A stretch of 64,000 nucleotides of DNA. Source: Candidatus Eiseniibacteriota bacterium. Its GTDB lineage: Bacteria > Eisenbacteria > RBG-16-71-46 > CAIMUX01 > VGJL01. The notes under the pieces are model-generated. The model was not told the DNA's origin. It made no database searches and was given only the letters and a program-made list of their open reading frames with translations. The stretch lies in contig JBHGAY010000016.1 of NCBI GenBank assembly GCA_041946735.1, positions 32,001 to 96,000 of the forward strand, in the 5' to 3' direction. Shown in pieces: positions 31,406 to 53,358 of the stretch (within the stretch, counting starts at the first letter, position 1; each line of letters opens with the position of its first letter). A program made the translations under genes and the position numbers.

Positions 31406-32956
31406 ATGCCCCTTCGCAATCGCGTTCGCTCACTTTCCATCGCGGCGATCCTCTGCGCCGTCTCGACTCTCGGTTCGATAACGGTCGCGGCCCCCATCGG
31501 AACGGAGATCACGTATCAAGGCGCGCTGCAAGACGGGGGATCGCCCGCGAATGGCTCGTATGATTTCCGCTTCCGTCTGTTCGATGCTATTTCCGGCGGG
31601 AATCAGGTTGGATCTGGTGTCGCGGTCGAGAACCTGGCCGTGGCAAACGGCGTCTTCACGGCCGTCATCGACTTCGGCCAAAACGGATTCGGCCCGGACG
31701 GCCGCTGGCTCGAAGTCGGAGTCCGCCCCGGTGCCGATTCCGATCCCGCTCCCTACACGATTCTGACTCCCCGGCAACAGGTAACGGCGTCGCCCGTCTC
31801 CCTGTTCTCTCTGGGGTCGGGCGACAATCACTGGTCACAGAACGGTAGCGCCATCACGAACAACAACGATGGTTTCGTGGGCATCAACCGATCGACCAGG
31901 GTGACGACTTCGGAGTACTTCGGCGTTCAAGCGGCCACCAACGGCTATGGCGGAATGTACATGGCGACCGACGGGGCGGAAGGTCTGCCATTCTATGGTT
32001 ATTCCACGGGAGCCAGGAGCGCGTGGACCTACCTGGATGGGGCCAACGGGAACTGGTTCGTGCACAACGGGGCCGACCGGGTCGTCGTCACGAGCACGGG
32101 AGAGGTCGGCATTGGAACACTCTCGCCGGACTACCGTCTCGAGGTGACGTCCGGCGACGGAGACGCCATCCATGGATCGACCACCGCGGCATTCTCGGCC
32201 GGCATTTCGGGCACGGGAACGACTGCGGGGGTGAGCGGGATTTGTGGCACGAGCAATGGGTCCGGGGTCTTCGGCCAGAACAACAGCGCGTCGGGGACGG
32301 GTGTCCGAGGCGAAACCAGTGGGAACAGCGGAGCGGGTGTTGCCGGCTATGCCCCGTCGGGAACCGGCGTGTACGGCCAGACGAGCACCGGCTATGCCAT
32401 CTACGGCAGCAACGGCGGCAGCAACCTGAGCGGCTACGCCGGCTACTTCAACGGGCGAGTGCACGTCGCGGGGATTCTCTCCAAGGCGAGTGGGTCGTTC
32501 AAGATCGATCATCCGCTGGACCCGTTGAACAAGACCCTGAGCCACTCGTTCGTGGAGAGCCCTGACATGATGAACATCTACAACGGGAACGTCACGACCG
32601 ACGAGAAGGGACTTGCCCGTGTGGATCTCCCGGGATACTTCGAGGCTCTCAATCGCGACTTCCGCTATCAGCTCACCGTCCTCGGAGAGTTCGCGAATGC
32701 AACGATCGCGGAGGAAGTGAAGGACAACTCGTTCGTGATTCGCACCGACAAGCCCAGCGTGCGTGTGTCTTGGCAGGTGACAGGCATTCGGCACGATGCC
32801 TGGGCGGCCGCGCACCCGATAGTCGTGGAAGAGGAGAAGTCCTCGGCAGAGCAGGGACACTACATAAATCCCGGCGCCTACGGCACGGCAGATCTCGGAA
32901 GCGAGATGGCGACGCCTGCCGCCGATGCGGTCTCCGCCGCGGGGACGGCCCGATGA
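31406..32956 (+). CDS. Secreted 'ITYQG' N-domain protein with Gly-rich GVxG repeats and a tail-fibre-like SFKIDHPLDP C-terminal domain
   Basis: Signal peptide, ITYQGAL...YDFRFRLFDA...GVFT...WLEVGVR...LTPRQ; GEVGIGT; GVYG repeats; YQLT. Confidence 0.8.
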   Translation: MPLRNRVRSLSIAAILCAVSTLGSITVAAPIGTEITYQGALQDGGSPANGSYDFRFRLFDAISGGNQVGSGVAVENLAVANGVFTAVIDFGQNGFGPDGRWLEVGVRPGADSDPAPYTILTPRQQVTASPVSLFSLGSGDNHWSQNGSAITNNNDGFVGINRSTRVTTSEYFGVQAATNGYGGMYMATDGAEGLPFYGYSTGARSAWTYLDGANGNWFVHNGADRVVVTSTGEVGIGTLSPDYRLEVTSGDGDAIHGSTTAAFSAGISGTGTTAGVSGICGTSNGSGVFGQNNSASGTGVRGETSGNSGAGVAGYAPSGTGVYGQTSTGYAIYGSNGGSNLSGYAGYFNGRVHVAGILSKASGSFKIDHPLDPLNKTLSHSFVESPDMMNIYNGNVTTDEKGLARVDLPGYFEALNRDFRYQLTVLGEFANATIAEEVKDNSFVIRTDKPSVRVSWQVTGIRHDAWAAAHPIVVEEEKSSAEQGHYINPGAYGTADLGSEMATPAADAVSAAGTAR

Positions 32957-33498
32957 GATCCGCGCCGATTGTCCTCGCCGTCTTGGCGGCCTTGTCGGTG
33001 TTCAGCGGTGCCGGACAGGCTGAGGTCGCTATGCAGCGCTTCACGATGGACGGCGGGGGTGGGACCAGCTCTGGCGGAACGTACGCGCTGAGCGGAACGA
33101 TTGGGCAACCAGATGCAGGAGCGCTGTCCGGAGGAACCTATGCGCTCGCCGGTGGCTTCTGGTTTGGTGGAAGCGCAACCAGCGGGATCGAGCAGGATCC
33201 CTCGCCGGGGAACGGTGCGTGGATCACCGGCATCAGCCCGGCCGCTCCCAATCCGATGCGCGGTCAATCCGTCCTTGCTTTCCGCCTCGCCAGGCCGGAA
33301 GTGGTGCATCTCGAGATCTACAACATCGGAGGGGAACTGGTGCGCAACCTTTTGCGTGAGCCGCGTCCGGCGGGATCGTACCGGCTGGTCTGGGACGGGA
33401 AGGACGATCGAGGATCCGAGGTCGCGAGCGGGTTCTATTTCGTCCGATTCGTCACCAGTGAGCATGAGGACACCCAGAAGCTCCTGCTCGTCCGCTAA
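32953..33498 (+). CDS. Small secreted DGGGG/SGTIGQ-domain protein with FlgD-Ig CTD
   Basis: FTMDGGGG...YALSGTIGQPDAG...GGFW then PNP...WDGKD...SGFYF; ATGA overlap with the upstream gene. Confidence 0.82.
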   Translation: MRSAPIVLAVLAALSVFSGAGQAEVAMQRFTMDGGGGTSSGGTYALSGTIGQPDAGALSGGTYALAGGFWFGGSATSGIEQDPSPGNGAWITGISPAAPNPMRGQSVLAFRLARPEVVHLEIYNIGGELVRNLLREPRPAGSYRLVWDGKDDRGSEVASGFYFVRFVTSEHEDTQKLLLVR

Positions 33499-33899: not shown

Positions 33900-34939
33900 C
33901 GAAACAGGCCGCTTCCGAGGACTCGCGTTGCTCGGCGTGTGCTCCAAGAACGTCGCAGCTCCCGGTTCAATGGTGATCGCCGGGGACCACATCTACGTCT
34001 CCAATACATTCAAAGCGGACATCTACAGGATCCTCGCCTCCCATCTTCCGGAGTGGGTGCGAACCTTCGACGAGGCGTGGATCGACATCGCGGTCCGGGG
34101 CTCCCACGCCTATCTGACGAGCGAGGTCGGCTTCTACGGGATCCGGGTGATGGATCTGTCGACACCAGAGGTGCCGGCCATCGTCAACGATGCCCTGCCA
34201 GGACATCGTCCGGGAGATCACGCTGGGAGAGGCGCACGCCTATACGTGCGGCGAGGGGCAAGGGCCGGATCGTCTCCTGGATGCCCGCGAGGGGCGTGGT
34301 CGAAACAATCGCCGGGGACAGCGGATCGTGCACGTCGATGACGTACAGGTAGAACAGATCCGGCTCTGGGGCAGGCCCAACATTGCCACGCTCCGCGGCG
34401 CGGTCCCGGTCTGCGAGGTCGAAGACCCGCAGTACCTCTACATTGGCGGAGAGCGTCTCACAGTCGTTGATGCGCACGACCCGCTTACCCCGCGTGTTCT
34501 CGGGAACCTCGGCCCTCCTAGCGAGGTCAACGCCATCATCGCCCTGGACGAGTACCTCTTCACGACCGGCGCAGGCTGGCAGGAGGGGCTCGTTGTCCTG
34601 CCGGCGCCGTGCAACCCGGCGCATGCGATCGATGACGGCTCGCTCCTCGGTCTTCGGGACGGTCTGCGCCTCGGCGCTCCATACCCGCAGCCCTCCGCCG
34701 CGGGGATCACCATTCCCCTCGATCTGCCTGCCGACGCAACCGCGCGCGCGAACGTCTACGACGCGGGGGGGCGACTCGTACGCGCGATCGCCACCGCCTC
34801 TCTCGGGCAAGGCGGCCGGCAGGACATCGCCTGGGACGGCCGGGACGACGACGGACACCGCGCGCCCGCCGGGGTCTACCTGGTGCGTGTCCGCGCGATG
34901 GGAATCGAGGCGACGTGCACCGTCGTACTCGCGCACTGA
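33900..34939 (+). pseudogene. Degraded LVIVD-repeat/FlgD-CTD gene: 5'-truncated, frameshifted and with an internal inversion
   Basis: LVIVD repeats in two + frames (shift near 34190) and on the - strand at 34259-34432; intact CTD to TGA 34939; no signal peptide. Confidence 0.7.
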
Positions 34940-35173: not shown

Positions 35174-36862
35174 TCAGCGGAGCAGGACGACCGGCCTCCT
35201 CGCCACCTCGCTCCCGTCGCGCATCACACGGACGAAGTACACGCCGGCGGGCAGTCGCGTTCCGTCTGAGTCCCGCCCGTCCCAATGGAACGCGGACTCC
35301 GGCCTGTTGCGGAGGAGCCGTCCCGACGCGTCATAGATCCGGATCTCGATCCGGCTCCCGGGCTCCGTAGAAGAGAAGGCGATGCTCGCGGATCCCTGGA
35401 ACGGGTTCGGAGCGATCCGCAGTCCCGAGATCCAGGAAGTGTCTTCGTAGATGCCGGCGGCAGGGCATCCGATCCCGAAGGCGCCGATCAAGCCGCAACC
35501 GGGAGGCGACAGGTCGGGCATGCAGGGGGAGTCGCGTTGGAGCGTGAAGTCGTAGGCGGATGGATCGCAGAAGAGAGGATCCTCACTGATGTTCCCGTCG
35601 AGGCCGGTCGGATCCTGACAGACGCCGCCATAGTTGCCGTTCGCATGGCCGTACGCATCGTTGCAGTCGAAGTCGATCATGCCCTGCCCGGCGCAGGTGA
35701 AGCCGGCTCCCTCGCTTCGGTTTGCATAGACGATGTTGCGGGAGAAGCTGGGGGTGGAAGCGCCGTAGACGGCGACCCCTCCGCCATCGACAAGGGCGAC
35801 GTTTCGGGCAATCGTGTTCTCCGCCACGGATCCGTAGCAGTTGTGAAGGAAGAGACCGCCACCTTCGCCGCGAATTGGATAGTTCTCGTAGGCGGAGCTG
35901 TCGGTGTTGGCGGCGAAGAGGTTCCGCTCGATCCTCACGCCGCACTCGTATGCGTAGAGAGCTCCTCCTTCTGTCGCGCGGTTCTCGAGGAACCGATTCT
36001 CCAAGATCGTCACGTCCCCGCAGCTCTCGAGATAGATTGCTCCGCCTCGTGCGACGGCGTCTGGTTCGGCCTGCCAGCCGATCGTCTGACAGTCCGCAAA
36101 GAGGTTCCGCTCGATCTCGATCCGGCCGGGCACCGAAGATGCCTCAATGGCAGCCCCTCGTCCCGAGATGCCGTCGTCGCTCATGGCCCTGCAGTGGAGG
36201 AAGAGGTTGTCGTGGATCGCCGCGGCGGGGGCGAGCACGTTGACCCCTACGGTTTCGATGAACTGGTTCGACTCGATCCCAACCCCTCCGGCATCGACCT
36301 GCACCGCAGGGTTGGTGTAGAACCAGCGCAACTCGTTCTCTCGCACGATGGCGCCCGGGCCTCTCACCCAGACGCCGCCCCCCCAGCCGTGGTGTTCGAG
36401 ATTGTTGTCCTCGATCACGACTTCTGCAGACTCCTCGAGGATCGTGATCGCCCAGCCCATGAAGCTGACGATGTTGAACCCCTCGATCCGGCTGCGTGAT
36501 CCATGGACGAGGATCGTCGACTCCCAGTCATCGAGGACGAGCGTCGCCTTGGCCGAATAGACGGAGAGCAGCGTCACGTCGGAGCGCGGCATGGTCAGCC
36601 CTTGGGCGCCAAGGTCGTAGCCACCGGGCCAGACCGCGACCGTGTCGCCAGGCTGCGCCAGGTCGAGCGCTTCTTGCACGGTCGGGATCTCGTTCGGGAC
36701 CTCCCAGGTCTCGGCGTACGCGATCCCGGCCACAAGCGCGAGCAAGGTAAGACAGACGGAGAGGCGGTTAAGAGGATGGAGACAATAGAAACGGTGGAAA
36801 CCACCGAGACAGACAGGGCCGGCGCGAGCCGATCTTGCCGTCGGTCCCGTTTCCTGGTTCAT
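35174..36862 (-). CDS. Secreted right-handed beta-helix (pectin-lyase-like) protein with FlgD-Ig CTD
   Basis: PTVQEALD...GDTVAVWPG, repeated IxxNxF, GGAI; GNISEDPLFC; PNPF...WDGRD...GVYFV; AAGGAGG RBS. Confidence 0.82.
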   Translation of the reverse strand: MNQETGPTARSARAGPVCLGGFHRFYCLHPLNRLSVCLTLLALVAGIAYAETWEVPNEIPTVQEALDLAQPGDTVAVWPGGYDLGAQGLTMPRSDVTLLSVYSAKATLVLDDWESTILVHGSRSRIEGFNIVSFMGWAITILEESAEVVIEDNNLEHHGWGGGVWVRGPGAIVRENELRWFYTNPAVQVDAGGVGIESNQFIETVGVNVLAPAAAIHDNLFLHCRAMSDDGISGRGAAIEASSVPGRIEIERNLFADCQTIGWQAEPDAVARGGAIYLESCGDVTILENRFLENRATEGGALYAYECGVRIERNLFAANTDSSAYENYPIRGEGGGLFLHNCYGSVAENTIARNVALVDGGGVAVYGASTPSFSRNIVYANRSEGAGFTCAGQGMIDFDCNDAYGHANGNYGGVCQDPTGLDGNISEDPLFCDPSAYDFTLQRDSPCMPDLSPPGCGLIGAFGIGCPAAGIYEDTSWISGLRIAPNPFQGSASIAFSSTEPGSRIEIRIYDASGRLLRNRPESAFHWDGRDSDGTRLPAGVYFVRVMRDGSEVARRPVVLLR

Positions 36863-41275: not shown

Positions 41276-42106
41276 ATGATGGCAACACTGCTACGAGGTA
41301 AGGGCGCAGGGAAGCCGGGAGGCGGCGGGTCGGCGATCCCGAGACCATGGCTGGCGGTGCCCGCCGTGCTGGGTCTCCTGTTCGGTGCCTCCGCCATCGC
41401 GGCTGCCGAGCCCGTCGATGACGAAGCGAGCGCCAGCGATCATTTGGGCTGGGTGCTCATCGACACAGCAGGTGGCACCCGTGAATGGGTCGTCGCTCCT
41501 CCGGAGCCGGGGACGCCGCTGGTGTCGGATGAGACCCTCGCGGTGGATCCGGTTCAGGCGGGCAATGCCGGTTGGATCGGCATCGTGTCGGACAGGGGAA
41601 CCGAGGAGTGGGTGGTTGCCCCGCCTCCTGGTGCCGTGCCGGGCGATGTGACGGCGGCCGACGCAAGCCTGGTCGACGAAGAGGCGGCCGTCTCCGAGTC
41701 GAGGCAGGACTGGGTCTATCTGGAGACGGGACCCGGGTGCGGCGAGTGGGTGGTTCGGCCCCCATCGGCGTCGGGATCTTCGGCCTCTCTTGCGAACGCG
41801 GCGGGCGCCGGCCTCCGGCTCGACGCCGTCCCGCCGGTCGTTGCGGAAGGGGAGAGGGTGACGTTCTCAACCAAGGACAACCGCGTCTCCTCGCTTCAGA
41901 TCCTTGTGTTCGACGTGACAGGACGGCAGGTGTACCAGAGCGCCGACGAGCCAGGCGGGACGGTCCGGTGGGATCTTCGTGACGATCGGGGGGCGCCCCT
42001 TTCCAAGGGGATGTACTTCTACAGCGCAAGCGGCCGGACATCCGCCGGCCGTCTGCAGTCCGCCAACCCGGGTAAGTTGCTGATCCTCGGCAGCGCTTCC
42101 AACTGA
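41276..42106 (+). CDS. Secreted protein with three W-x8-G-x2-EWVVxPP repeats and FlgD-like CTD
   Basis: WVLIDTAGGTREWVVAPP, WIGIVSDRGTEEWVVAPP, WVYLETGPGCGEWVVRPP; VFDVTGRQV...WDLRDDRG...GMYFY. Confidence 0.72.
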   Translation: MMATLLRGKGAGKPGGGGSAIPRPWLAVPAVLGLLFGASAIAAAEPVDDEASASDHLGWVLIDTAGGTREWVVAPPEPGTPLVSDETLAVDPVQAGNAGWIGIVSDRGTEEWVVAPPPGAVPGDVTAADASLVDEEAAVSESRQDWVYLETGPGCGEWVVRPPSASGSSASLANAAGAGLRLDAVPPVVAEGERVTFSTKDNRVSSLQILVFDVTGRQVYQSADEPGGTVRWDLRDDRGAPLSKGMYFYSASGRTSAGRLQSANPGKLLILGSASN

Positions 42107-42322: not shown

Positions 42323-42430
42323 TTAGCCGTAAAGGCCCTTGACGTGACCCATGACGTGCGCTCGACCGCCGTGGGAGCGCCGGGGTGGAAGAAGAGGTTG
42401 GCGATCACGTACGCCTCGGCCGCAGTGCGC
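42323..42430 (-). pseudogene. 3' remnant of a gene with the SWGxVK C-terminal tail (1-nt deletion)
   Basis: Minus strand ...PTAVERTSW, then after restoring one G: GHVKGLYG-TAA (stop 42325-42323). Confidence 0.6.
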
Positions 42431-42507
42431 CTCCGCCGCAGCGCGAATCGTGGTAAAATGTCTGGCGCGGCGGTCCCCCCGGAACGATTACATGGAGGGA
42501 AATGCCA

Positions 42508-44559
42508 ATGCTTCGCAAGCGGTCTGTCTGGGCGTTCCTCGCGGTCACGCTAGTCGCTCTCGGCGCGTCAGCGTCTTCCGCATCTGTCCCGCGGGTCGTC
42601 GTGCTCGAGTCCTTCGGCTCAGTCCTCTGAGACTTCTGCGTCGGAGCCCGGTGCGGGCTCCAGGCTTTGCAGGCGGACTACGGGTTCGATTCGGTCGTCC
42701 ATTTCGAGCATCACGTCAGCGAGACGGATCCGTTCTGCACGGACGAGACGCTCGCCAGGTACGAATGGTACGGGGTCAACGGCGTGCCGGCCGTTGTGAT
42801 CGACGGCTCATCGAGGGTCCTGGGAACCACTAACTGCGCATCCGCGGGCAGCAAGTTCCGTAACGCGGTCAATCAGAGGATGGGTGCGACCGGGTGGACG
42901 AGCCCGGTCCGCATCTCGGCGCACATGGGGGTCGAGGGAGCCTTGGCCCGGGTCACGGCGAACTACGCGCTCGTCGATCCCGTAGCGCTCTCGAACCTTC
43001 GCGCGACGTTCGTCTTATACGAGGACAACGTCGAATGGTGCTGCGGATCGGGAGAAGTCCACACGTGGCACGGAGTGACACGGCGGATCCTGACGGAACC
43101 GATCGTCCTCCAGCGTATCGGGGACGAAGCGACCGTCACGATGGCGTTGCCGATCGACCCAGGATGGGACGCGGGAGAGCTGCACGCCGTCGCGTTCCTT
43201 CAGGACTCCGTCTCCAAGGAGATCTTCCAGGGACAGGTGGTTCGCGATCTCTCGGTCGTCTTCCTCTCCCACATCGACTCCGTCCCGGACGGTTCCGCCG
43301 CCGTTCATTTCCCCGGGACGTTGCGCAACCTCCTCGCGACCGAGGCGGAGTTCACCCTCCGGATCACGAACCCGTTCGGGGACTGGCCGACCGAGTTCTT
43401 CGTCGGCGGAGACCCGCAGCCGCACACGGCACCGTTCCGTCTGGCGATCGCCCCGGGCGGATCTTGCGATCTCGCTCTCCACGCCCGCACCGACACGAGC
43501 AAGGTCGCGCGTAGCGGCACGTTCGAGGTGACCTGTGAGAGCACGGGTTCGACGGAGCGCAACGACTTCCGCGTCTTCAACGGGACGCCCGCCGTGATCC
43601 TCGTGGATCATGACTGGGGGAGCGCCTATGAGGCCTCGATGATGCGCGCCCTCGGCGCGAACGGCGTTCTCTTCGATCGATGGAACGTCATGACGCGGCG
43701 AGGGACCCCTCCGCTCGGGAAGATGAAGGGGGCGGACATCGTGATCTGGTTGAGCGAGGGCGCGGTCACCGACGTGCTGACGGACGGCGACGCCGTTGGG
43801 CTCTCGGCGTTCCTCGATTCGGGAGGCGCCCTCTTCCTCGCGAGCAACTACTACCTGAACGCCCTCCAAACACAGGATCCCTCATTTGCGCGAGCCTACC
43901 TCGGCGTCGACTCCGGGAATCTCGACCTGGGATACCGCAGGATGGACGGCGTCGCGGGGGACGAGATCGGTGACGGCATGGTCCTGCCGCTCATCTTCCC
44001 CCACGAGGAGTGGGCCTCGGGAGGGGACGGCATCGTCCCGACGGAAACCGCGACGACCGACTTCGTCGCGGAAGGGGGCTCCCGCGCGATGATCCGAAAC
44101 ACCACGCCCGGGGGCGCCCGGTCGGTCTTCCTTGCCCAGCGCTTCGACGCGATCTCCGAGGACGATCCAGATCCGGACAACGCACGGACCCTGGTGAGGC
44201 GCATCTTCGACTGGCTGCGTCCGCAAGGGAATGCCGGCCTCGATGATCCGCCAGGCGCGGACGCCCTGCGGGAGGGAGTTCGGATCGTCGATGTCATCCC
44301 GAATCCCTTCCGCGGCGGCGTGCGGATCGCCTTCTTCCTCCCGGCATCGGATGTGGCGATCCCTGTGCGCCTCGACATCCTCGATGTGTCGGGACGGCGA
44401 GTTGCGACGGTTCTTGACGAGACGCTCGCGCCCGGACCCCACGTCGTTCGATGGGAAGGCCGGGACGAGGCGGGGCGGCGCGTCGCCCGGGGAGCCTACC
44501 TCGCCCGTCTCGTCACGCCTGGCGGGACGAGCTCGGCGAAGGCGCTTCTTTCGCGGTAG
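42508..44559 (+). CDS. Secreted Omp28/thioredoxin-like selenoprotein (UxxC) with FlgD-Ig CTD, 683 aa
   Basis: GGAGG RBS, signal peptide, RVVVLESFGSVL-TGA(42628-42630)-DFC in frame with the 42667 ORF; YGVNGVPAVVIDG; hairpin 12 nt after the TGA. Confidence 0.82.
42643..42661 (+). promoter_or_regulatory. Bacterial SECIS-like stem-loop
   Basis: GGAGCCCG-GTG-CGGGCTCC perfect stem with G-initial apical loop about 20 nt 3' of the in-frame UGA. Confidence 0.75.
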
Positions 44560-48238: not shown

Positions 48239-49144
48239 TCACTTCTCGGCCGTCTCCAGCAGGCGCGTGACGATCGGCTCGACGGCTGCCTGTGCCTCAG
48301 CCTCCGCCACGAGCAATCCTCCGGGCATGCGCGCGGCCCGCGCGAGCGAGGGGCGCTCCGGCACGGCGCCGAGATACGAGAGCGGGCGATTCAGGAACCG
48401 GCGTGCCGCGTAGTCCAGCCGCTCGAAGACGGCCGTGCCCTCGCGCTCCTCGGCGGCTCGATTGACGAGGACGTCGATCGGGAGCGAGGGAGCCTGCATC
48501 GTCGCCACTTTGATGAGCGCGTAGGCGTCGCTCAGCGAGGCCGGCTCGGGCACGGCGACGACGATCATCCTGTCGGCCCGCACCGCCGAACGAATCGGAC
48601 TTTCGATGCCCGGCCCGCCATCGACGACGACCACGTCGTGGTCCTCGTAGGCCGCGGTCAACTTGACGTGCAGGCGCGCCCGCTCGAGCGGATCGGCGGC
48701 GGCGCGCAGGCGGTCGCCGCTCGCCTCCGACGGCAAGAGCCACAGCCGGTCGACGACCGACACGAGCTTCTCGCGCGCCTCGACCTGTCCGGTCAGGACC
48801 TCGTCGAGGTGAACCGCCGGGCGCACACCGAGAAGCAGGTGCAGATGCCCTCCTTCCTGCGCGCCGTCGAGTAACAGGACGTTCCGCGCCCGTCTCTGGA
48901 AGGCGCCGGCGAGCAGCACGGACAGCACCGACTTGCCGACGCCTCCCTTGCCGCTCCCGAGAACGATCACCTGCTCGGGACGACGGGAAGGCGGGGCCTG
49001 GCATGCTGCCGGCCGCCGCTGCTGCTCGAGCCCCAGATGCTGCCGCGCGGGTGCGTCGTGCGACTGCTCCGGCGCCGAAGCGATCGAAGCGATCGGCCGC
49101 CCGCCCGCGCGGTGCCTCGTCAGAGGAATCTCGATCTCGATCAT
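48239..49144 (-). CDS. flhG: MinD-like flagellar number regulator FlhG/FleN
   Basis: SGKGGVGKS, DGGPG, PEPASLSDAYALIK; lies between flhF and fliA. Confidence 0.85.
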   Translation of the reverse strand: MIEIEIPLTRHRAGGRPIASIASAPEQSHDAPARQHLGLEQQRRPAACQAPPSRRPEQVIVLGSGKGGVGKSVLSVLLAGAFQRRARNVLLLDGAQEGGHLHLLLGVRPAVHLDEVLTGQVEAREKLVSVVDRLWLLPSEASGDRLRAAADPLERARLHVKLTAAYEDHDVVVVDGGPGIESPIRSAVRADRMIVVAVPEPASLSDAYALIKVATMQAPSLPIDVLVNRAAEEREGTAVFERLDYAARRFLNRPLSYLGAVPERPSLARAARMPGGLLVAEAEAQAAVEPIVTRLLETAEK

Positions 49145-50004
49145 TGCGGCCTCCCGCTCGTGCCGGCGCGCGGCGCCTGCCGCAGATCGCCGGGGATCTC
49201 CTGGCCGTCGCTCGCCCAGCGCATCGCCAGCTCGTGCTCGCTCGCCAGCTCCGCGATCGACCCGATCGACGGGTCGTCGCCGAACTCATCGAGCTTGGTC
49301 GGAAGCAGGTGCGTGACGCCGTCGGCGCGATGCTCGGCGATCCAGCGTCGCGCCAGTCTCGGATGCAGCCCGGCCGGCAGCGCGAGATGCACCTCGTCGG
49401 GAGCGAGCGCGCGCAGCATCTCGCGGACGAGCCCGATCTCCGCGCGACGCCCGGGCCCGCGCCCCGGCGTGTCGACGAGCAGCACGTCGCAGCCGCGCAG
49501 GCGCCGCACCGCGTCCGGCAAGTCGGTCGGCTCATAGGCGGCGGCGAACGGAATCCCCGAAAGCGCGGCGAACTGGCGGGACTGCTCGATCGCGCCGACG
49601 CGGTGGCTGTCCAGCGTGAGCACCGCGCACGACTTCCCGCCGAATGCCTGCGGGTGCGAGGCAAGCTTCGCGATCGTCGTCGTCTTGCCGCCTCCGGTCG
49701 GACCGACGAGCGCGAGCACGAAGGGCCGCCCGCCCCGCTTCGCCCGCTCCGGGATGGGGAACGGGACGGGCGTCGGACGCGACGCGGGACTATTGCCTGC
49801 CATCGACACTGCCGACGCGGGGTCACCGGCGACCAGCTCGAACCACGCGGCGGCTCCCTCACCGGCGTGCGGGCCGTGTCCCGCGGCACCGCGGCCGCCG
49901 CTCCTCCTGCGGATCTCCAGGACGACGGCGTCCTCGCCGATCGTCTCCTCGGCGCGCGCGAGCAGCGCCGGGATGCTCGTTCCCGAAAATGTCTCAAGCG
50001 GCAT
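49141..50004 (-). CDS. flhF: Flagellar SRP-like GTPase FlhF (compact)
   Basis: GPTGGGKTTTIAKLA, DSHRVGAIEQ, DTPG, TKLDE, GQEIP. Confidence 0.88.
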   Translation of the reverse strand: MPLETFSGTSIPALLARAEETIGEDAVVLEIRRRSGGRGAAGHGPHAGEGAAAWFELVAGDPASAVSMAGNSPASRPTPVPFPIPERAKRGGRPFVLALVGPTGGGKTTTIAKLASHPQAFGGKSCAVLTLDSHRVGAIEQSRQFAALSGIPFAAAYEPTDLPDAVRRLRGCDVLLVDTPGRGPGRRAEIGLVREMLRALAPDEVHLALPAGLHPRLARRWIAEHRADGVTHLLPTKLDEFGDDPSIGSIAELASEHELAMRWASDGQEIPGDLRQAPRAGTSGRPQ

Positions 50005-52210
50005 GGGGAAGCTCCCAGATTCGGACGGTCTGGATCGGCGTCTGCGGCGGTAACTCGGCGAGCGAGATGACCGGCAGGCGCGGGAGTGTCGGCTCGATCA
50101 GCTTGCGGATCCCGACGCGCAGCGAGGGCGGTGTCACGAGCGGCGGGACCTGGCCGTCCCGCTTCTGCTCGTTCGTGATCTTCGAGAGCGACTCGAGCGC
50201 GCGGGCGAGCTGCTCCGGCTCGAGCGCTGTCCGCTGCCCCTCGCCGGCGGGCGCGACGCGCGGGCTGAAGAGCTGCATCAGGGCGACCTCGAGGCGCGGT
50301 CCCACCGTGACCGCCTGCAGCGGCCGGTCGGTCCCGCCGAGCATTTGCACAATCGTGAGCGAGAGCGCGCGGCGCACCTGCTCCGCCAGCGCCTCGGGAT
50401 CCTTCGTCATCTCGGCCGCGTCGGAGAGCGTCTCGAGGATCGCCGCGAGATCGCGGATCGGGATCCCTTCGCGCAGCAGCTTCTGCAGCACGCGATGGAC
50501 GGTGCCGAGCGAGACGCGGTTGGGGATCACGTCCTCGACGAGGGCCGGGTTCGTCTCCTTCAGGCCGTCGAGCAGCTCGCGGGTCGCCTGGCGCGTGAGC
50601 AGCTCCGCGGCATGATCGCGGATCGTCTCCATCAGGTGCGTCGCGAGGACGGCCGGCGGCTCGACGACGGTGTAGCCGCTCGCCTCCGCCTGGCTCCGCC
50701 GCTCCGGACCGATCCAGACGGCGGGGATTCCGAAGCTCGGATCGCGCGTCGCGAGCCCGTCGACGGCGAGCGCGGAGCCGGTCGTGTCGAGCGCAAGGAG
50801 ATGCCGAGGCAGCAGCTCGCCCGAGGCGACCCGCACGCCGCGCAGCCGGATCACGTACTCGTTGCCTGAAAGCTGGATGTTGTCGCGGATCCGCGCCGGC
50901 GGGACGATCATCCCCAGCTCGAACGCGAGCTGCTTGCGCAGGATTCCGATCCGCTGCAGCAGGTCTCCGGACTGCGATTCGTCGACGAGCGGCACGAGCG
51001 CGTAGCCGATCTCCAGCTCCAGCGGCTCGACCTCGACCACCTCGCGCGGGTCCGGCGTGCCGGCGGGCGGAGCGCCGGACGGGATCGCGGCGTTCGAGCC
51101 CGCTGCGCCCGCCCCGCGCGCGTCCGCGTTCGCGGTCGCGCGCTGTCGCCGCGAAACCAGGTACGCGACGCCGCCCGCCACGCCGGCGAGCAGCAGGAAC
51201 GGCGCGGCGGGGAGCCCCGGGACGATCGCGAAGAGCGCGAGGATCGCGCCCGCGGTGCCGATGGCGCGCGGGTTGCGCGTGAGCTGGTTGCCGAGCGAGG
51301 GGCCCATCGCCATCCCGCCCGAGCCGTACGTCACGAGAATGCCTGCCGCCGTCGAGACGATCAGCGCCGGGATCTGCGTCACGAGGCCGTCGCCGACGGT
51401 GAGGGAGCTATAGGTCTGGAGCGACTCGCCCGCGGAAAGTCCCTGCTGCGTCATGCCGATGACGAAGCCGCCGATCAGGTTGATCGCCGTGATCAGGATG
51501 CCGGCGATCGCGTCGCCTCGCACGAACTTCGCCGCGCCGTCCATCGAGCCGTAGAAGTCGGCGTAGCGGCTGATCTCCTCGCGACGCCGACGCGCCTCCA
51601 TCTCGTCGATCAGACCGGCGCCCAGGTCGGCGTCGATCGACATCTGCCGTCCCGGCATCGCATCGAGAGTGAAGCGTGCGGCGACTTCGGCGATGCGGCC
51701 CGCCCCCTTCGTGATGACGACGAAGTTGATGACGACCAGAATCAGGAAGATCACGAGCCCGACGACCGTGTTGCCGCCGATCACGAAGCTGCCGAAAGCG
51801 GAGATCACCTTGCCGGCGTGCCCCGTGCTGAGGATCAACCGCGTGCTGCTGACGTTCAGGCCGAGGCGCAGCAGCGTGATCAGGAGCAGCAGGCTCGGGA
51901 AGATGCTGAACTCCAGCGGGTCGCGCGCGGAGAGGACGACCAGAAGGATCACGATCGACAGCCCGAAGCTGAGCGCCAGGAACGCGTCGAGCAGAAACGG
52001 TGGCAGCGGGACGATCAGGAGCGCCACGACGGCGACGACGCCGATCGCGAGGTAGGTCTCGATCGTCGGCGAGATCGACAGGCGCAAGCGGGCGGGGGCG
52101 GTGGGCTCGGAGCGGCCGGCGCCGCGCGAGGGCGTGGTCCGTCCCGCCGGACTGCCGGAGGCGGTCGAGACGACCGGCGCGGCGGCCTGCGCGAGCGTGA
52201 CTTCGCTCAT
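49994..52210 (-). CDS. flhA: Flagellar export gate protein FlhA
   Basis: FPSLLL, AEVAARFTLDAMPGRQMSIDADL, FYGSMDGAAKFVRGDAIAG, GDGLVTQIP. Confidence 0.96.
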   Translation of the reverse strand: MSEVTLAQAAAPVVSTASGSPAGRTTPSRGAGRSEPTAPARLRLSISPTIETYLAIGVVAVVALLIVPLPPFLLDAFLALSFGLSIVILLVVLSARDPLEFSIFPSLLLLITLLRLGLNVSSTRLILSTGHAGKVISAFGSFVIGGNTVVGLVIFLILVVINFVVITKGAGRIAEVAARFTLDAMPGRQMSIDADLGAGLIDEMEARRRREEISRYADFYGSMDGAAKFVRGDAIAGILITAINLIGGFVIGMTQQGLSAGESLQTYSSLTVGDGLVTQIPALIVSTAAGILVTYGSGGMAMGPSLGNQLTRNPRAIGTAGAILALFAIVPGLPAAPFLLLAGVAGGVAYLVSRRQRATANADARGAGAAGSNAAIPSGAPPAGTPDPREVVEVEPLELEIGYALVPLVDESQSGDLLQRIGILRKQLAFELGMIVPPARIRDNIQLSGNEYVIRLRGVRVASGELLPRHLLALDTTGSALAVDGLATRDPSFGIPAVWIGPERRSQAEASGYTVVEPPAVLATHLMETIRDHAAELLTRQATRELLDGLKETNPALVEDVIPNRVSLGTVHRVLQKLLREGIPIRDLAAILETLSDAAEMTKDPEALAEQVRRALSLTIVQMLGGTDRPLQAVTVGPRLEVALMQLFSPRVAPAGEGQRTALEPEQLARALESLSKITNEQKRDGQVPPLVTPPSLRVGIRKLIEPTLPRLPVISLAELPPQTPIQTVRIWELPHAA

Positions 52211-53358
52211 ACGGTGGCCCTCGCGCCGGCTCCCGCGGCGCCGGACGCGGCAGAGCCGGCCGAGCGGGCGATGGCCTCGCGCATCGAGCGGAGGCCCCCG
52301 CGCTGCCGGTAGACGTAGGCTAGGATCTCGGCCACCGCGGCGTAGAGCGCCGGCGGGATCGGCTTGCCGATCTTCCCCGTGGCGAGAAGCGCGCGCGCGA
52401 CCGGCTTGTTCTCGACGATCGGCACGCGGGCGTCGTTGGCGAGCGCGCGGATCCGCTCGGCAAGCTTTCGCTGTCCCATCGCGACGACGATCGGCGCGGC
52501 CGCCTTCGCCGGGTCGTACTTCAGCGCCACGGCGATCCGCGTCGGGTTGGTGACGACGACGTCGGCGAGCTTCACCTGCTGGAGCATCCGACGCCGCGCC
52601 TCGGCCCGCATCATCGAGCGGATCCGGCTCTTCACGAGCGGATCCCCTTCGCTCTCGCGATGCTCGTAGATCACCTCCTGGCGCGTCATCCGCAGGCTCT
52701 TCTCCATCCGCCAGTGCTGGAACGCGTAGTCGAAGAAGGCGATCGCGAGGAACGCGAAGCCGACGAGGACGGCGAGGCGCAGCAGGAGCGAGCGGATCAC
52801 GAGCGCGATCTCGTGCGGGCCTGATTCGGAGAGCGACATCAGTTCCGGCCAGCTCCGCCGGATCATCACGTAGGTCAGCAGCCCGAGAATGGTCAACTTC
52901 ACGAGCGACTTCGCCAGCGTGAAGAGCGACTCGACGCTCGCGATCCTTTTGAAACCCGCGATCGGATCGAGGAGCGAGAAGTTCGGCTGGAGCGGCTTGA
53001 GCGTCAGGACCCCGCGCGCCTGCCAGGCGCTCACCGCGAGGACGATCAGCGTGAGCCCGACCAGGAACGGCAGGATCGCCCGGGCGAAGCCGAAGCCGAG
53101 GGAACGCACGATATCGACCGCGCCCGCGGCGGTGAGCGGATCGGCGGCGAGGCGGGCGGCGGAGTCATGCGTGAACTGGACGGCGAACGCGTAGATCGGC
53201 GGCCCGCCGGCTGCAGAGAGCAAGAGCGCGCCGCCGAGAATGCCGATCGCCGCGTTCAGCTCGGGACTTCGCGCGACCTTCCCTTCCTCGCGCGCCTGCT
53301 GCCGGCGTCGCGGGGTCGGGGCTTCGGTTCTCTCCTGGCCACCCGAATCTTCGGACAT
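52207..53358 (-). CDS. flhB: Flagellar export switch protein FlhB
   Basis: ERTEAPTPRR, ESEGDP, TNPT autocleavage loop, ENKPVARAL. Confidence 0.95.
   Translation of the reverse strand: MSEDSGGQERTEAPTPRRRQQAREEGKVARSPELNAAIGILGGALLLSAAGGPPIYAFAVQFTHDSAARLAADPLTAAGAVDIVRSLGFGFARAILPFLVGLTLIVLAVSAWQARGVLTLKPLQPNFSLLDPIAGFKRIASVESLFTLAKSLVKLTILGLLTYVMIRRSWPELMSLSESGPHEIALVIRSLLLRLAVLVGFAFLAIAFFDYAFQHWRMEKSLRMTRQEVIYEHRESEGDPLVKSRIRSMMRAEARRRMLQQVKLADVVVTNPTRIAVALKYDPAKAAAPIVVAMGQRKLAERIRALANDARVPIVENKPVARALLATGKIGKPIPPALYAAVAEILAYVYRQRGGLRSMREAIARSAGSAASGAAGAGARATV

Follow-up and report, generated by a model that had tools for sequence, protein, structure and literature searches.

A predicted selenocysteine-containing thioredoxin-fold protein with a type IX secretion-like tail in Candidatus Eisenbacteria

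Gene layout and domain organization

The gene described here is found at 42508-44559 on the plus strand of the window, by which is meant the whole stretch of 64,000 nucleotides that was analysed, and the other features discussed are on the same strand unless stated otherwise. A Shine-Dalgarno-like GGAGG (42494..42498) is followed by ATG codons at both 42502 and 42508, all read directly from the sequence. The probable start is the ATG at 42508..42510, which is located 9 nt past the GGAGG and makes the TGA at 42628..42630 codon 41; the alternative in-frame ATG (42502-42504) is only 3 nt past the GGAGG. The TGA is in frame with a 630-aa open reading frame, which under translation table 11 starts at a TTG (42667..44559) and harbors neither a signal peptide nor a UxxC motif. 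When the TGA is read as selenocysteine (Sec, U), a single 685-aa frame runs from 42502, with the TGA as U43, to a directly read TAG stop codon at 44557..44559, and the translated context is ...RVVVLESFGSVL-U-DFC-VGARCGL. The preliminary description had set out this arrangement, with a ribosome-binding site and start at 42508, a signal peptide, one TGA at codon 41 leading into the 630-aa frame, a U-D-F-C context and a perfect hairpin 12 nt after the TGA, and the sequence agrees with it exactly. The locus is confirmed as a genuine gene of a Candidatus Eisenbacteria bacterium, encoding one protein of about 683 residues. The phylum was assigned from FlhA, whose best matches (73-78% identity) come from MAGs of Candidatus Eisenbacteria.

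The protein begins with a putative signal peptide (42508..42582), assigned by inspection and alignment, which has a basic N-terminal end, a hydrophobic core and a small-residue cleavage site between SSA and SVP; the site was positioned via alignment to the paralogues, which read AxA before the cut and GVPK after it. This is followed by a thioredoxin-fold and beta-sandwich domain of the HBP35, Omp28 and DUF1223 kind (42586..43251; AlphaFold2, Foldseek and NF045500), in which sequence, model and profile place a U-D-F-C redox motif (42628..42639) at the N-terminal end of helix 1. A SECIS-like hairpin (42643..42661), recognized by its fold and its conservation, overlaps the coding sequence just beyond this motif. 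The remainder of the protein consists of an Ig-like all-beta domain (43252..43581; model m97afc32341e2, strands E2-E112), an alpha/beta domain (43582..44220; model and structural matches) and a putative C-terminal sorting domain of the FlgD_ig-like or type IX secretion type (44287..44514; Pfam, the tail of the PorU model, and paralogues).

Selenocysteine machinery and homologues

The genome encodes the full set of components for selenocysteine insertion, the presence of which had been put forward as a check on the reading. These are selA (478.9 bits), selB (349.1 bits), selD (388 bits) and tRNA-Sec (72.1 bits, called as SeC(tca) by ARAGORN), each scoring above its curated cut-off. The genome's selD carries one in-frame TGA of its own.

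The family to which the protein belongs is present in 38 of 41 related genomes. Among the 150 family matches listed from these genomes, counted by hand, 109 have exactly one in-frame TGA, 40 have none and one has a TGA together with a TAG. The N-terminal domains of 58 homologues, 51 flagged as having a TGA and seven as having none, were compared by alignment. In all 51 TGA-bearing homologues, which show 24-46% identity, the TGA is at the first position of the U/CxxC motif, and in all seven Cys forms the same column is TGC or TGT, so the expectation that TGA and Cys codons would alternate in this column is borne out. The 52 database representatives that cover the column have Cys in 50 cases, Ala in one and Ser in one. 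The flanks of the TGA are conserved on both sides, as ..VPKVxxxEEFGATW-U-xYCPxARCGL... An upstream start codon is found in 58 of 58 homologues (57 ATG, 1 GTG) when the start is taken as the farthest ATG 20-70 codons upstream of the U/C codon, or else another start codon; the ATGs are 34-70 codons ahead, and the U/C codon is at 39-47 in most homologues. A hydrophobic, signal-peptide-like stretch comes after the start in the homologues read. Five homologues have a second TGA, located upstream of the ATG.

The same family also employs TGA as a normal stop codon. Fourteen homologues were read past the N-terminal domain, one of which ran off the end of its locus, and 5 of the 13 that reach a stop codon end at TGA; the genome's own paralogues on contigs C71 and C18 likewise have a TGA stop after the tail domain. 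The preliminary description had held that there is no genome-wide recoding, and a changed genetic code is indeed unlikely because TGA serves as a stop within the family.

The SECIS-like hairpin

The hairpin, GGAGCCCG-GTG-CGGGCTCC, starts 12 nt past the TGA and forms a perfect 8-bp stem, closed by the loop GUG (42651-42653), within the minimum-energy fold. Its single-sequence folding energy is unremarkable (z = -1.51; 15 of 200 shuffles are equally stable), and its significance comes from conservation across homologues rather than from this energy. Among 49 Sec forms of the order, the loop is GTG in 47 and all five core pairs form in 40. The pair 30-38 is CG in 35 sequences, GC in 13 and UG in one, and is unpaired in none. 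Paired cells amount to 70.3% in these 49 sequences compared with 61.8% in shuffles, none of 500 of which reach 70.3%, and the covariation score of 0.220 exceeds both the shuffled value of 0.099 (0/500) and all six slid registers; as the sequences are kin, the shuffle controls overstate the significance of the hairpin. The five core pairs are absent from all 20 distant Cys forms and occur in three of seven near Cys forms, but there with the loop CTG. The same geometry is seen in the hairpin of the genome's selD, where 12 nt of spacer precede a stem of 8 bp and a loop of 3 nt with G first. A conserved SECIS hairpin, as had been suggested for this gene, is thus upheld by its retention among Sec forms, its G-first loop and the compensatory pair 30-38.

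The hairpin's loop and upper 5 bp coincide with codons for a conserved A-R-C-G, which means that its conservation in nucleotide sequence is partly that of the protein. Lower stems occur in many sequences in a variable register; at the fixed register (pairs 24-44 to 27-41), the lower stem is paired in a minority of sequences, and a 9-bp stem at that register was rejected as its lower four pairs suit only this minority. A scan of 42400-42900 with Rfam, at E up to 10, gave no match, which carries no weight either way.

These observations also bear on whether the UGA might be decoded in some other way, by a near-cognate tRNA for Trp, Cys or Arg or through a local or genome-wide change of the code. 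With plain read-through, selection would likewise act on the frame on either side of the UGA. Against this, the genome has a complete Sec set including tRNA-Sec(tca), the column is occupied by Cys and not Trp in the Cys forms and in nearly all database representatives, the hairpin is conserved at a spacing shared with selD, and TGA ends genes of the same family. Such decoding appears highly improbable, and, as judged from the comparative sequence evidence, the TGA at 42628 almost certainly encodes selenocysteine.

Truncation of the gene in public databases

Standard gene callers were expected to truncate the gene, and this is what has happened, in that the public protein cluster (P0002) is the 630-aa form. 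A word-index search with the whole protein returned eight matches, consisting of its own 630-aa form, one 54%-identical fragment and matches to the tail only. As this search gave so few, an exhaustive search with the N-terminal domain was needed to see the family, and it yielded 1213 matches at E <= 0.001. The N-terminal domain alone, when compared with genome contigs, found no confirmed relative. In 97 of the best 150 database representatives the start is placed just past the CxxC position, a pattern that marks systematic mis-calling; these 97 are left without signal peptide or Sec/CxxC motif. Sequence comparison thus suggests that the family of this gene is large in its order and for the most part mis-annotated; with the correction made, each Eisenbacteria genome would gain several selenoproteins.

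The annotated form corresponds to a reading in which the TGA is a true stop. The locus would then be a pseudogene, the product of faulty assembly, or two units: an upstream open reading frame of 42 codons and, independent of it, a 630-aa protein with its start at TTG 42667. Table 11 yields exactly those two frames, and the public cluster agrees with the second of them, but such a 630-aa protein would have a thioredoxin fold without its CxxC, and no signal peptide. Moreover, conservation of the sequence runs across the TGA, the TGA occupies the same column in every TGA-bearing homologue despite their low identity, and a start just past the CxxC position is the common pattern among the best database representatives. 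Contigs from two other studies span the TGA with 0 differences (42526-43341 and 42400-42639), which makes an assembly error unlikely. A true stop is, on this evidence, the least credible account of the locus, with hardly any probability left to it.

Fold and family of the N-terminal domain

The N-terminal domain is modelled by AlphaFold2 with a pLDDT of 94.7 as a thioredoxin fold combined with a beta-sandwich. The best Foldseek match is the hemin-binding protein HBP35 (5y1a; E 4.9e-11, TMq 0.71, 249 columns), with further matches to DUF1223 (2axo, E 5.1e-10) and Omp28 (2r2c, E 4.7e-4). In the model, U43-C46 opens helix 46-60, and strands are found at 33-39, 65-71, 97-100 and 104-107. The family profile matches the thioredoxins 1fo5 (E 2.5e-8) and 1nho with the CxxC motifs aligned, and P96, presumably the cis-Pro position of thioredoxins, is invariant in the family alignment. 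The hallmarks of the fold, a U/CxxC at the N-terminal end of helix 1, a beta-alpha-beta-alpha-beta-beta-alpha core and a conserved Pro before strand 3, are all present. The Omp28/thioredoxin-like domain that had been proposed from the sequence is therefore in agreement with the predicted fold and the Foldseek matches. Omp28 and DUF1223 are thioredoxin-clan kin, although their Pfam scores are under the gathering cut-offs: PF11551 gives 14.6 bits over residues 88-244 (cut-off 34.9) and PF06764 gives 13.7 bits over residues 34-234 (cut-off 30.7). The DSBA Pfam match is weak and also below its cut-off. The signal peptide has no lipoprotein Cys, in contrast to what would be expected from the name of NF033782, the Omp28 lipoprotein model.

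The best NCBIfam match of the N-terminal domain is NF045500, 'Omp28-related selenoprotein' (E 3.7e-12), which is matched over positions 38-266 of 377 with 46.3 bits for the domain and 42.9 bits for the whole protein. This is well short of the cut-off of 200, and the NCBI selenoprotein model of the nearest family consequently misses this branch. The model is matched by 46 of 47 family members at E <= 0.001, the best having an E of 9.7e-21. Judged by these profile matches, the protein is a distant relative, on a divergent branch, of NF045500 (GOS_C). The link to a known family comes from this match together with Table 1 of PMC13188914, where GOS_C is entered as a 'Hypothetical protein' with a UxxC motif and one Sec.

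GOS_C was first predicted in 2008 by Zhang and Gladyshev, with 74 Sec and 312 Cys sequences, a fold like that of Trx and a SECIS-like hairpin (PMC2398784). It shares with the present family a thioredoxin-like fold, a UxxC that opens with Sec, the existence of homologues in Cys form and, just past the UGA, a hairpin that has a G in its apical loop. In contrast to NF045500, the long form of this protein adds Ig-like and alpha/beta domains, and the family is one of soil-type Eisenbacteria, whose genomes carry at least six Sec paralogues each, in many cases in tandem. Other predicted UxxC selenoproteins include DsbA-like, DsbG-like and thiol:disulfide interchange proteins (Table 1 of PMC13188914). 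These also combine the thioredoxin fold with UxxC and, going by their names, are extracytoplasmic, but they belong to other families (PF01323, NF041057 and PF13098). In the passages of PMC13188914 that concern them, none of these UxxC selenoproteins is described as type IX cargo, and the terms 'T9SS', 'signal peptide' and 'secreted' are absent from its main text.

The novelty implied by the preliminary description is lowered by this catalogued family of Omp28-related UxxC selenoproteins. The finding is solid but incremental, as the recoding is textbook, the mechanism is not new and the type of protein was predicted in 2008 from ocean metagenomes. A literature search found no paper pairing Eisenbacteria with selenocysteine or selenoprotein, selenoprotein with Omp28, or HBP35 with selenocysteine. 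In the main text of the BSepDB paper (PMC13326102) the family was not found by a search of terms; its database or supplements could list it.

Middle domains, C-terminal tail and type IX secretion

The best structural matches of the alpha/beta domain are to OST48/Wbp1 and to a portion of GH42 glycosidases that we take to be their non-catalytic alpha/beta domain. The structure search returned only multi-domain glycosidases, peptidases and OST subunits, and gave no functional or catalytic assignment for this domain.

The C-terminal tail was originally described as FlgD-like, a view that holds. FlgD_ig of Pfam matches residues 609-668 with 29.2 bits (cut-off 27), and the tail aligns along its full length with paralogue tails that pass the type IX model TIGR04183, on which C23 scores 37 bits and C18 23.7 bits against a cut-off of 23. 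A further match is to the PorU model's tail (contig coordinates C8:76287-76514), which about 45 other open reading frames of the genome match as well. With respect to the secretion apparatus, PorU (596 bits, cut-off 420) and SprA (492 bits with its neighbours, cut-off 200) are both encoded.

It could also be that the protein does contain Sec but is periplasmic or released, the FlgD-like domain being a mere Ig-like module here. This would suit the score of the tail of this copy on TIGR04183, which at 11.5 bits is below the cut-off, and the best PorV-like match in the genome, which at 111.2 bits is below the cut-off of 250. The alignment with the passing paralogue tails, the shared match to the PorU-model tail and the scores of PorU and SprA are set against it, as is the closest solved structure, HBP35, which is type IX cargo according to passages of PMC3120885. 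A periplasmic or released protein seems unlikely, though it retains appreciable weight, and export by way of the type IX tail is preferred.

The resemblance to HBP35, a 35-kDa hemin-binding protein of P. gingivalis, extends over the whole fold of the N-terminal domain and includes a thioredoxin-like motif. Passages of PMC2907840 and PMC3120885 describe a conserved C-terminal domain of HBP35 for attachment to the cell surface, and Por-dependent (type IX) secretion. However, HBP35 shares only 14% identity with the present protein, has Cys rather than Sec, and is without the Ig-like and alpha/beta middle domains.

Proposed mode of action

Taken as a whole, the evidence is best explained by a Sec-containing UxxC thioredoxin-fold protein that is exported with a type IX tail, an explanation that is very probably correct. 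In such a scheme, SelB and Sec-tRNA(Sec) would bind the hairpin with the ribosome at the UGA, and selenocysteine would be inserted. In the product, helix 1 of the thioredoxin fold would open with an active site of the form U-x-x-C. The signal peptide would direct this protein across the inner membrane through the Sec translocon, after which the FlgD-like/Por tail may allow its handover to the type IX system, with the SprA translocon and the PorU sortase, for export. By analogy with HBP35 of Porphyromonas gingivalis, it would probably then be anchored at the cell surface. The likely activity is a thiol/selenol-disulfide exchange on extracytoplasmic substrates.

The earlier suggestion that the protein acts on many Cys-rich secreted proteins encoded nearby is not supported by the neighbouring open reading frames that were looked at. 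Only one of these, at 35174-36862 on the minus strand, combines a tail with a high Cys content (15 Cys in 562 aa), and the suggestion was rejected.

Paralogues and evolution

Counting this gene, the genome contains at least six paralogues with Sec. A wider reading is that Eisenbacteria maintain batteries of Sec enzymes outside the cell, with every paralogue exported by the type IX system. On this view, the Cys forms dispersed within the Sec clade would reflect repeated losses of Sec in favour of Cys; the family tree is a quick tree with SH-aLRT support and a midpoint root, and does not itself give the direction of Sec/Cys change. Taken jointly with these losses and with the evolutionary coupling considered below, this reading is tentative and rather doubtful. 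If true, these paralogues would provide the first demonstrated case of bacterial selenoenzymes that act at the cell surface, here in an oxidising soil setting. A selenol withstands irreversible over-oxidation better than a thiol. With its annotation corrected, the family would more broadly point to a redox chemistry that uses selenium outside the cytoplasm, in a soil phylum that is common and uncultured.

Under the same reading, evolution would have tied the RNA signal, through the A-R-C-G codons, to what may be a third redox Cys. The Arg codon of this A-R-C-G is CGG in the Sec forms and CGC in the near Cys forms.

The in-frame TGA and its reading

The gene at 42508-44559 on the forward strand is supported as a genuine, mis-annotated gene for a predicted exported UxxC selenoprotein with a putative type IX secretion tail, in line with the selenoprotein interpretation of the preliminary description. 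A GGAGG element (42494-42498) precedes two candidate ATG start codons, at 42502 and 42508, the second of which lies at a good distance from it. By inspection, the start is followed by a signal peptide, basic and then hydrophobic, and the residues ...RVVVLESFGSVL lead into a TGA at 42628-42630 that is succeeded by D-F-C. This TGA is codon 41 when counted from 42508, and is called U43 here by counting from 42502. The frame continues unbroken into a 630-aa open reading frame, for which the table 11 start is the TTG at 42667, and closes with a TAG at 44557-44559. Twelve bases 3' of the TGA is found a perfect hairpin, GGAGCCCG-GTG-CGGGCTCC (42643-42661). The start, signal peptide, TGA, frame and hairpin had all been described exactly, as reading the sequence confirms. 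Taken as a single sequence, the hairpin is not unusual in G+C-rich DNA (z = -1.51, equalled by 15 of 200 shuffles), and the case for selenocysteine (Sec) is therefore built on comparison with relatives.

Two other readings of the TGA can be set aside. An error is excluded, as the identical TGA occurs in metagenome contigs of two other studies, labelled as industrial-waste and landfill, which cover it with no differences (record 6 of one set, 42526-43341, and record 9 of the other, 42400-42639); a further contig set that may be the origin of this DNA is left out of the count. A changed genetic code is likewise excluded, because genes of this family also use TGA to terminate: when 14 homologues were read past the N-domain (the thioredoxin fold and beta-sandwich), a stop codon was reached in 13 and was TGA in five of these, and the paralogues on contigs C71 and C18 of the same genome also terminate at TGA. 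The earlier view that there is no genome-wide recoding is thus borne out by the family genes themselves.

A family with TGA or a cysteine codon at one position

A search of 41 related genomes that read through stops, using the N-terminal 253 residues with the TGA taken as C, gave matches in 38 of them. In a hand count of 150 listed matches, with 25 further matches outside the count, exactly one in-frame TGA was present in 109, none in 40, and a TGA together with a TAG in one. There are up to 11 copies per genome, commonly in tandem. Among 58 N-domains that were fetched and aligned, the TGA opens the U-x-x-C motif in all 51 flagged as TGA forms, and the same column holds TGC or TGT in all seven flagged as having none; the homologue alignment proposed earlier thus gives only TGA or a Cys codon. 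Conservation extends to both sides of the TGA (consensus ..SVPKVxxxExFGATW-U-xYCPxARCGL..). With the start set to the most distant ATG lying 20-70 codons 5' of the U/C codon, a start codon was assigned in 58/58 (57 ATG, one GTG), 34-70 codons before it and mostly 39-47, and a hydrophobic, signal-peptide-like stretch follows in those homologues that were read. In five family copies a second TGA lies 5' of the ATG.

The genome itself contains eight family matches, and of the seven listed, six have one TGA and one has none. The Sec paralogues are G000:C23:404-2428, C24:1203-1922, C24:2116-4146, C71:58371-59453 and C18:15226-16263, and the Cys paralogue is G000:C12:233432-235489. A long architecture of 675-685 aa is found in the window gene (contig C8), on C23, in the two C24 copies and in the C12 Cys form, and a short one of 346-360 aa, consisting of the N-domain and tail, on C71 and C18. 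The C24 pair is in tandem, and its first member extends past the contig end. Tandem arrays of three to five copies also occur in three relatives (G022:C10:35397-48546, G015:C7:841364-853174 and G004:C6:967502-972839). The G015 array includes one Cys-form member, and one G004 copy lies in two frames (972109-972570 and 972558-972839), possibly as a frameshifted pseudogene.

Hairpin conservation and the selenocysteine machinery

An ungapped alignment of the order's 49 Sec forms, running from -9 to +63 nt around the TGA, places a core, GCCCG-GUG-CGGGC, 15 nt 3' of the UGA. The hairpin is conserved in homologues, with the GTG loop present in 47 of the 49 and all five core pairs in 40; at a fixed register, the lower four pairs suit just a minority of the sequences. 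Pair 30-38, which joins a synonymous Ala third position to the second position of the next Gly/Ala codon, is C-G in 35, G-C in 13, U-G in one and unpaired in none. Over nine pairs, 70.3% of cells are paired against 61.8% in shuffles, and covariation scores 0.220 against 0.099, above all six slid registers; neither value was reached in 500 shuffles, although the sequences are kin. The upper stem coincides with the codons of a conserved A-R-C-G. The Cys forms provide a control: the distant ones, of the A-Y-Q/A-G type, have all five core pairs in 0/20. Among seven near Cys forms, the stem is kept in three with a CTG loop (Arg as CGC, not CGG), and GTG is kept in one. Local fold energy is lowest in Sec forms (-12.9), followed by near Cys (-10.1) and distant Cys forms (-8.1), a difference with a Mann-Whitney p of 6e-6 that is overstated by kinship. 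Rfam gave no family match for the hairpin region of the window gene.

The genome (4.89 Mb, 72 contigs, 94.8% complete), in which the window is G000:C8:32001-96000, encodes all four components that had been suggested as a check: selA (478.9 bits), selB (349.1) and selD (388), each above the NCBI cut-off, and tRNA-Sec (72.1 bits; SeC with anticodon tca by ARAGORN). Its selD (G000:C2, ~108941-109867, minus strand; locus L018) is also a selenoprotein gene, with a single in-frame TGA at the usual ...AGU... position. A 12-nt spacer separates this TGA from an 8-bp stem whose 3-nt loop starts with G. This geometry matches that of the window gene, which makes selD a positive control from within the genome, and it could also seed a scan for selenoproteins across the genome.

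Relation to known selenoproteins and evolution

NF045500, 'Omp28-related selenoprotein', is the NCBIfam model that fits the N-domain best, but its 46.3 bits fall below the cut-off of 200; 46 of 47 family members match it at E <= 0.001 (best 9.7e-21). Table 1 of a 2026 review gives NF045500 as 'Hypothetical protein GOS_C', a UxxC protein with one Sec (PMC13188914). The prediction of GOS_C from ocean metagenomes (Zhang and Gladyshev 2008, PMC2398784) comprised 74 Sec and 312 Cys sequences, for which UxxC, SECIS-like hairpins and a Trx-like fold were noted. The kind of protein is thus already known, and the present gene belongs to a distant branch of it, which the curated model misses and gene callers truncate. 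The expected truncation is evident in the public protein cluster, which holds the 630-aa form, and in the best 150 of 1213 database matches, 97 of which start just past the CxxC position. That position is covered in 52 of the same 150, as CxxC in 50, AxxC in one and SxxC in one, with one other representative borderline. Literature searches found no paper joining 'Eisenbacteria' with 'selenocysteine' or 'selenoprotein', BSepDB entries and supplements being outside their scope, and none joining 'Omp28' or 'HBP35' with selenoprotein terms. The finding is solid and of moderate interest, and it is of use for annotation.

A quick-search tree was made for 78 N-domains, rooted at the midpoint and with SH-aLRT support. 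In it, one clade (support 97) contains the 49 Sec forms of the order and seven Cys forms, scattered singly bar one pair, and a separate clade (support 99) contains 17 Cys forms of the A-Y-Q/A-G type. Well-supported branches of this quick tree force at least six Sec/Cys state changes. The pattern tentatively fits repeated Sec-to-Cys replacement, the midpoint root leaving the changes undirected.

Structure

An AlphaFold2 model of the N-domain from a 47-row alignment (mean pLDDT 94.7) comprises a thioredoxin fold, in which U43-x-x-C46 stands where helix 46-60 begins, and then a beta-sandwich. Porphyromonas gingivalis HBP35 ranks first in Foldseek (5y1a; E 4.9e-11, TMq 0.71, 249 columns), with DUF1223 (2axo) next and Omp28 (2r2c) lower. 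The CxxC is in register where the family profile matches small thioredoxins (1fo5, E 2.5e-8). Among the residues that vary little or not at all are U/C43, C46, C51, H71, R86, P96, G102 and C112. The rest of the protein (pLDDT 82.7, 11-row alignment) is modelled in three parts: an all-beta, Ig-like part; an alpha/beta domain whose matches, led by multi-domain GH42 glycosidases and OST48/Wbp1, assign it no function; and a disordered linker leading to a beta-sandwich tail.

C51 (42652-42654) and C112 (42835-42837) are kept by almost all members of the Sec clade and absent from the all-Cys A-Y-Q/A-G clade; two Sec forms (loci L062 and L063) lack C51 and have C112. One possibility is a structural disulfide, another a resolving Cys linked to the A-R-C-G motif that encodes the SECIS. 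A vicinal-Cys motif, W-C-C-G-x-G, lies in the beta-sandwich half (43033-43053, residues 178-184, W-C-C-G-S-G-E). It occurs in a subset of the family, in Sec and Cys forms alike, with unrelated residues in other members, and may form another redox site or a metal site. A weak second phmmer alignment, of residues 89-183 (part of the thioredoxin domain) with 431-523 (the alpha/beta middle domain), may reflect chance or a distant common alpha/beta core.

Predicted secretion, proposed mechanism and genomic surroundings

The tail matches Pfam FlgD_ig (29.2 bits, cut-off 27) and also the tail of the PorU model, and the corresponding tail in the C23 and C18 paralogues passes TIGR04183, 'T9SS type A sorting domain'. 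PorU (G000:C10:77116-80520, 596 bits) and SprA (G000:C14:38532-42638, 492 bits) are encoded above cut-off, and a PorV-like protein (G000:C11:95072-95749) below it. About 45 other open reading frames of the genome have tails resembling the one in the PorU model and so, with this type IX core, point to a large set of exported cargo.

The observed elements are the recoding signature, the Sec machinery, the modelled fold and the FlgD_ig-type tail. In the mechanism proposed from them, the GUG-loop hairpin would be bound by SelB, which would bring Sec-tRNA to the UGA. The protein would cross the inner membrane via the Sec translocon and be exported by the type IX system, with probable surface anchoring by PorU, and its U-x-x-C site would carry out selenol/thiol-disulfide exchange. 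Its candidate functions, taken from the analogy to HBP35, are hemin binding and thioredoxin activity (PMC2907840).

On the minus strand at 35174-36862 is a tail-bearing right-handed beta-helix protein that contains 15 Cys; other neighbours are a short-chain dehydrogenase and a small tail-bearing open reading frame (41276-42106, plus strand). Among the neighbours examined, the beta-helix protein alone is both tail-bearing and Cys-rich, and the suggestion that the enzyme acts on many Cys-rich proteins nearby is accordingly without support. A tail of this kind (..G.Y..R.....K..LL.) also closes the open reading frames at 32770-33498 and 34190-34939 on the plus strand. A flagellar export cluster on the minus strand (48239-53358) comprises FlhB (52207-53358), FlhA (49994-52210), a probable FlhF of the SRP54 GTPase type (49141-50004) and a ParA/MinD-like ATPase (48239-49144). 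The FlhA is 73-78% identical to that of Candidatus Eisenbacteria MAGs.
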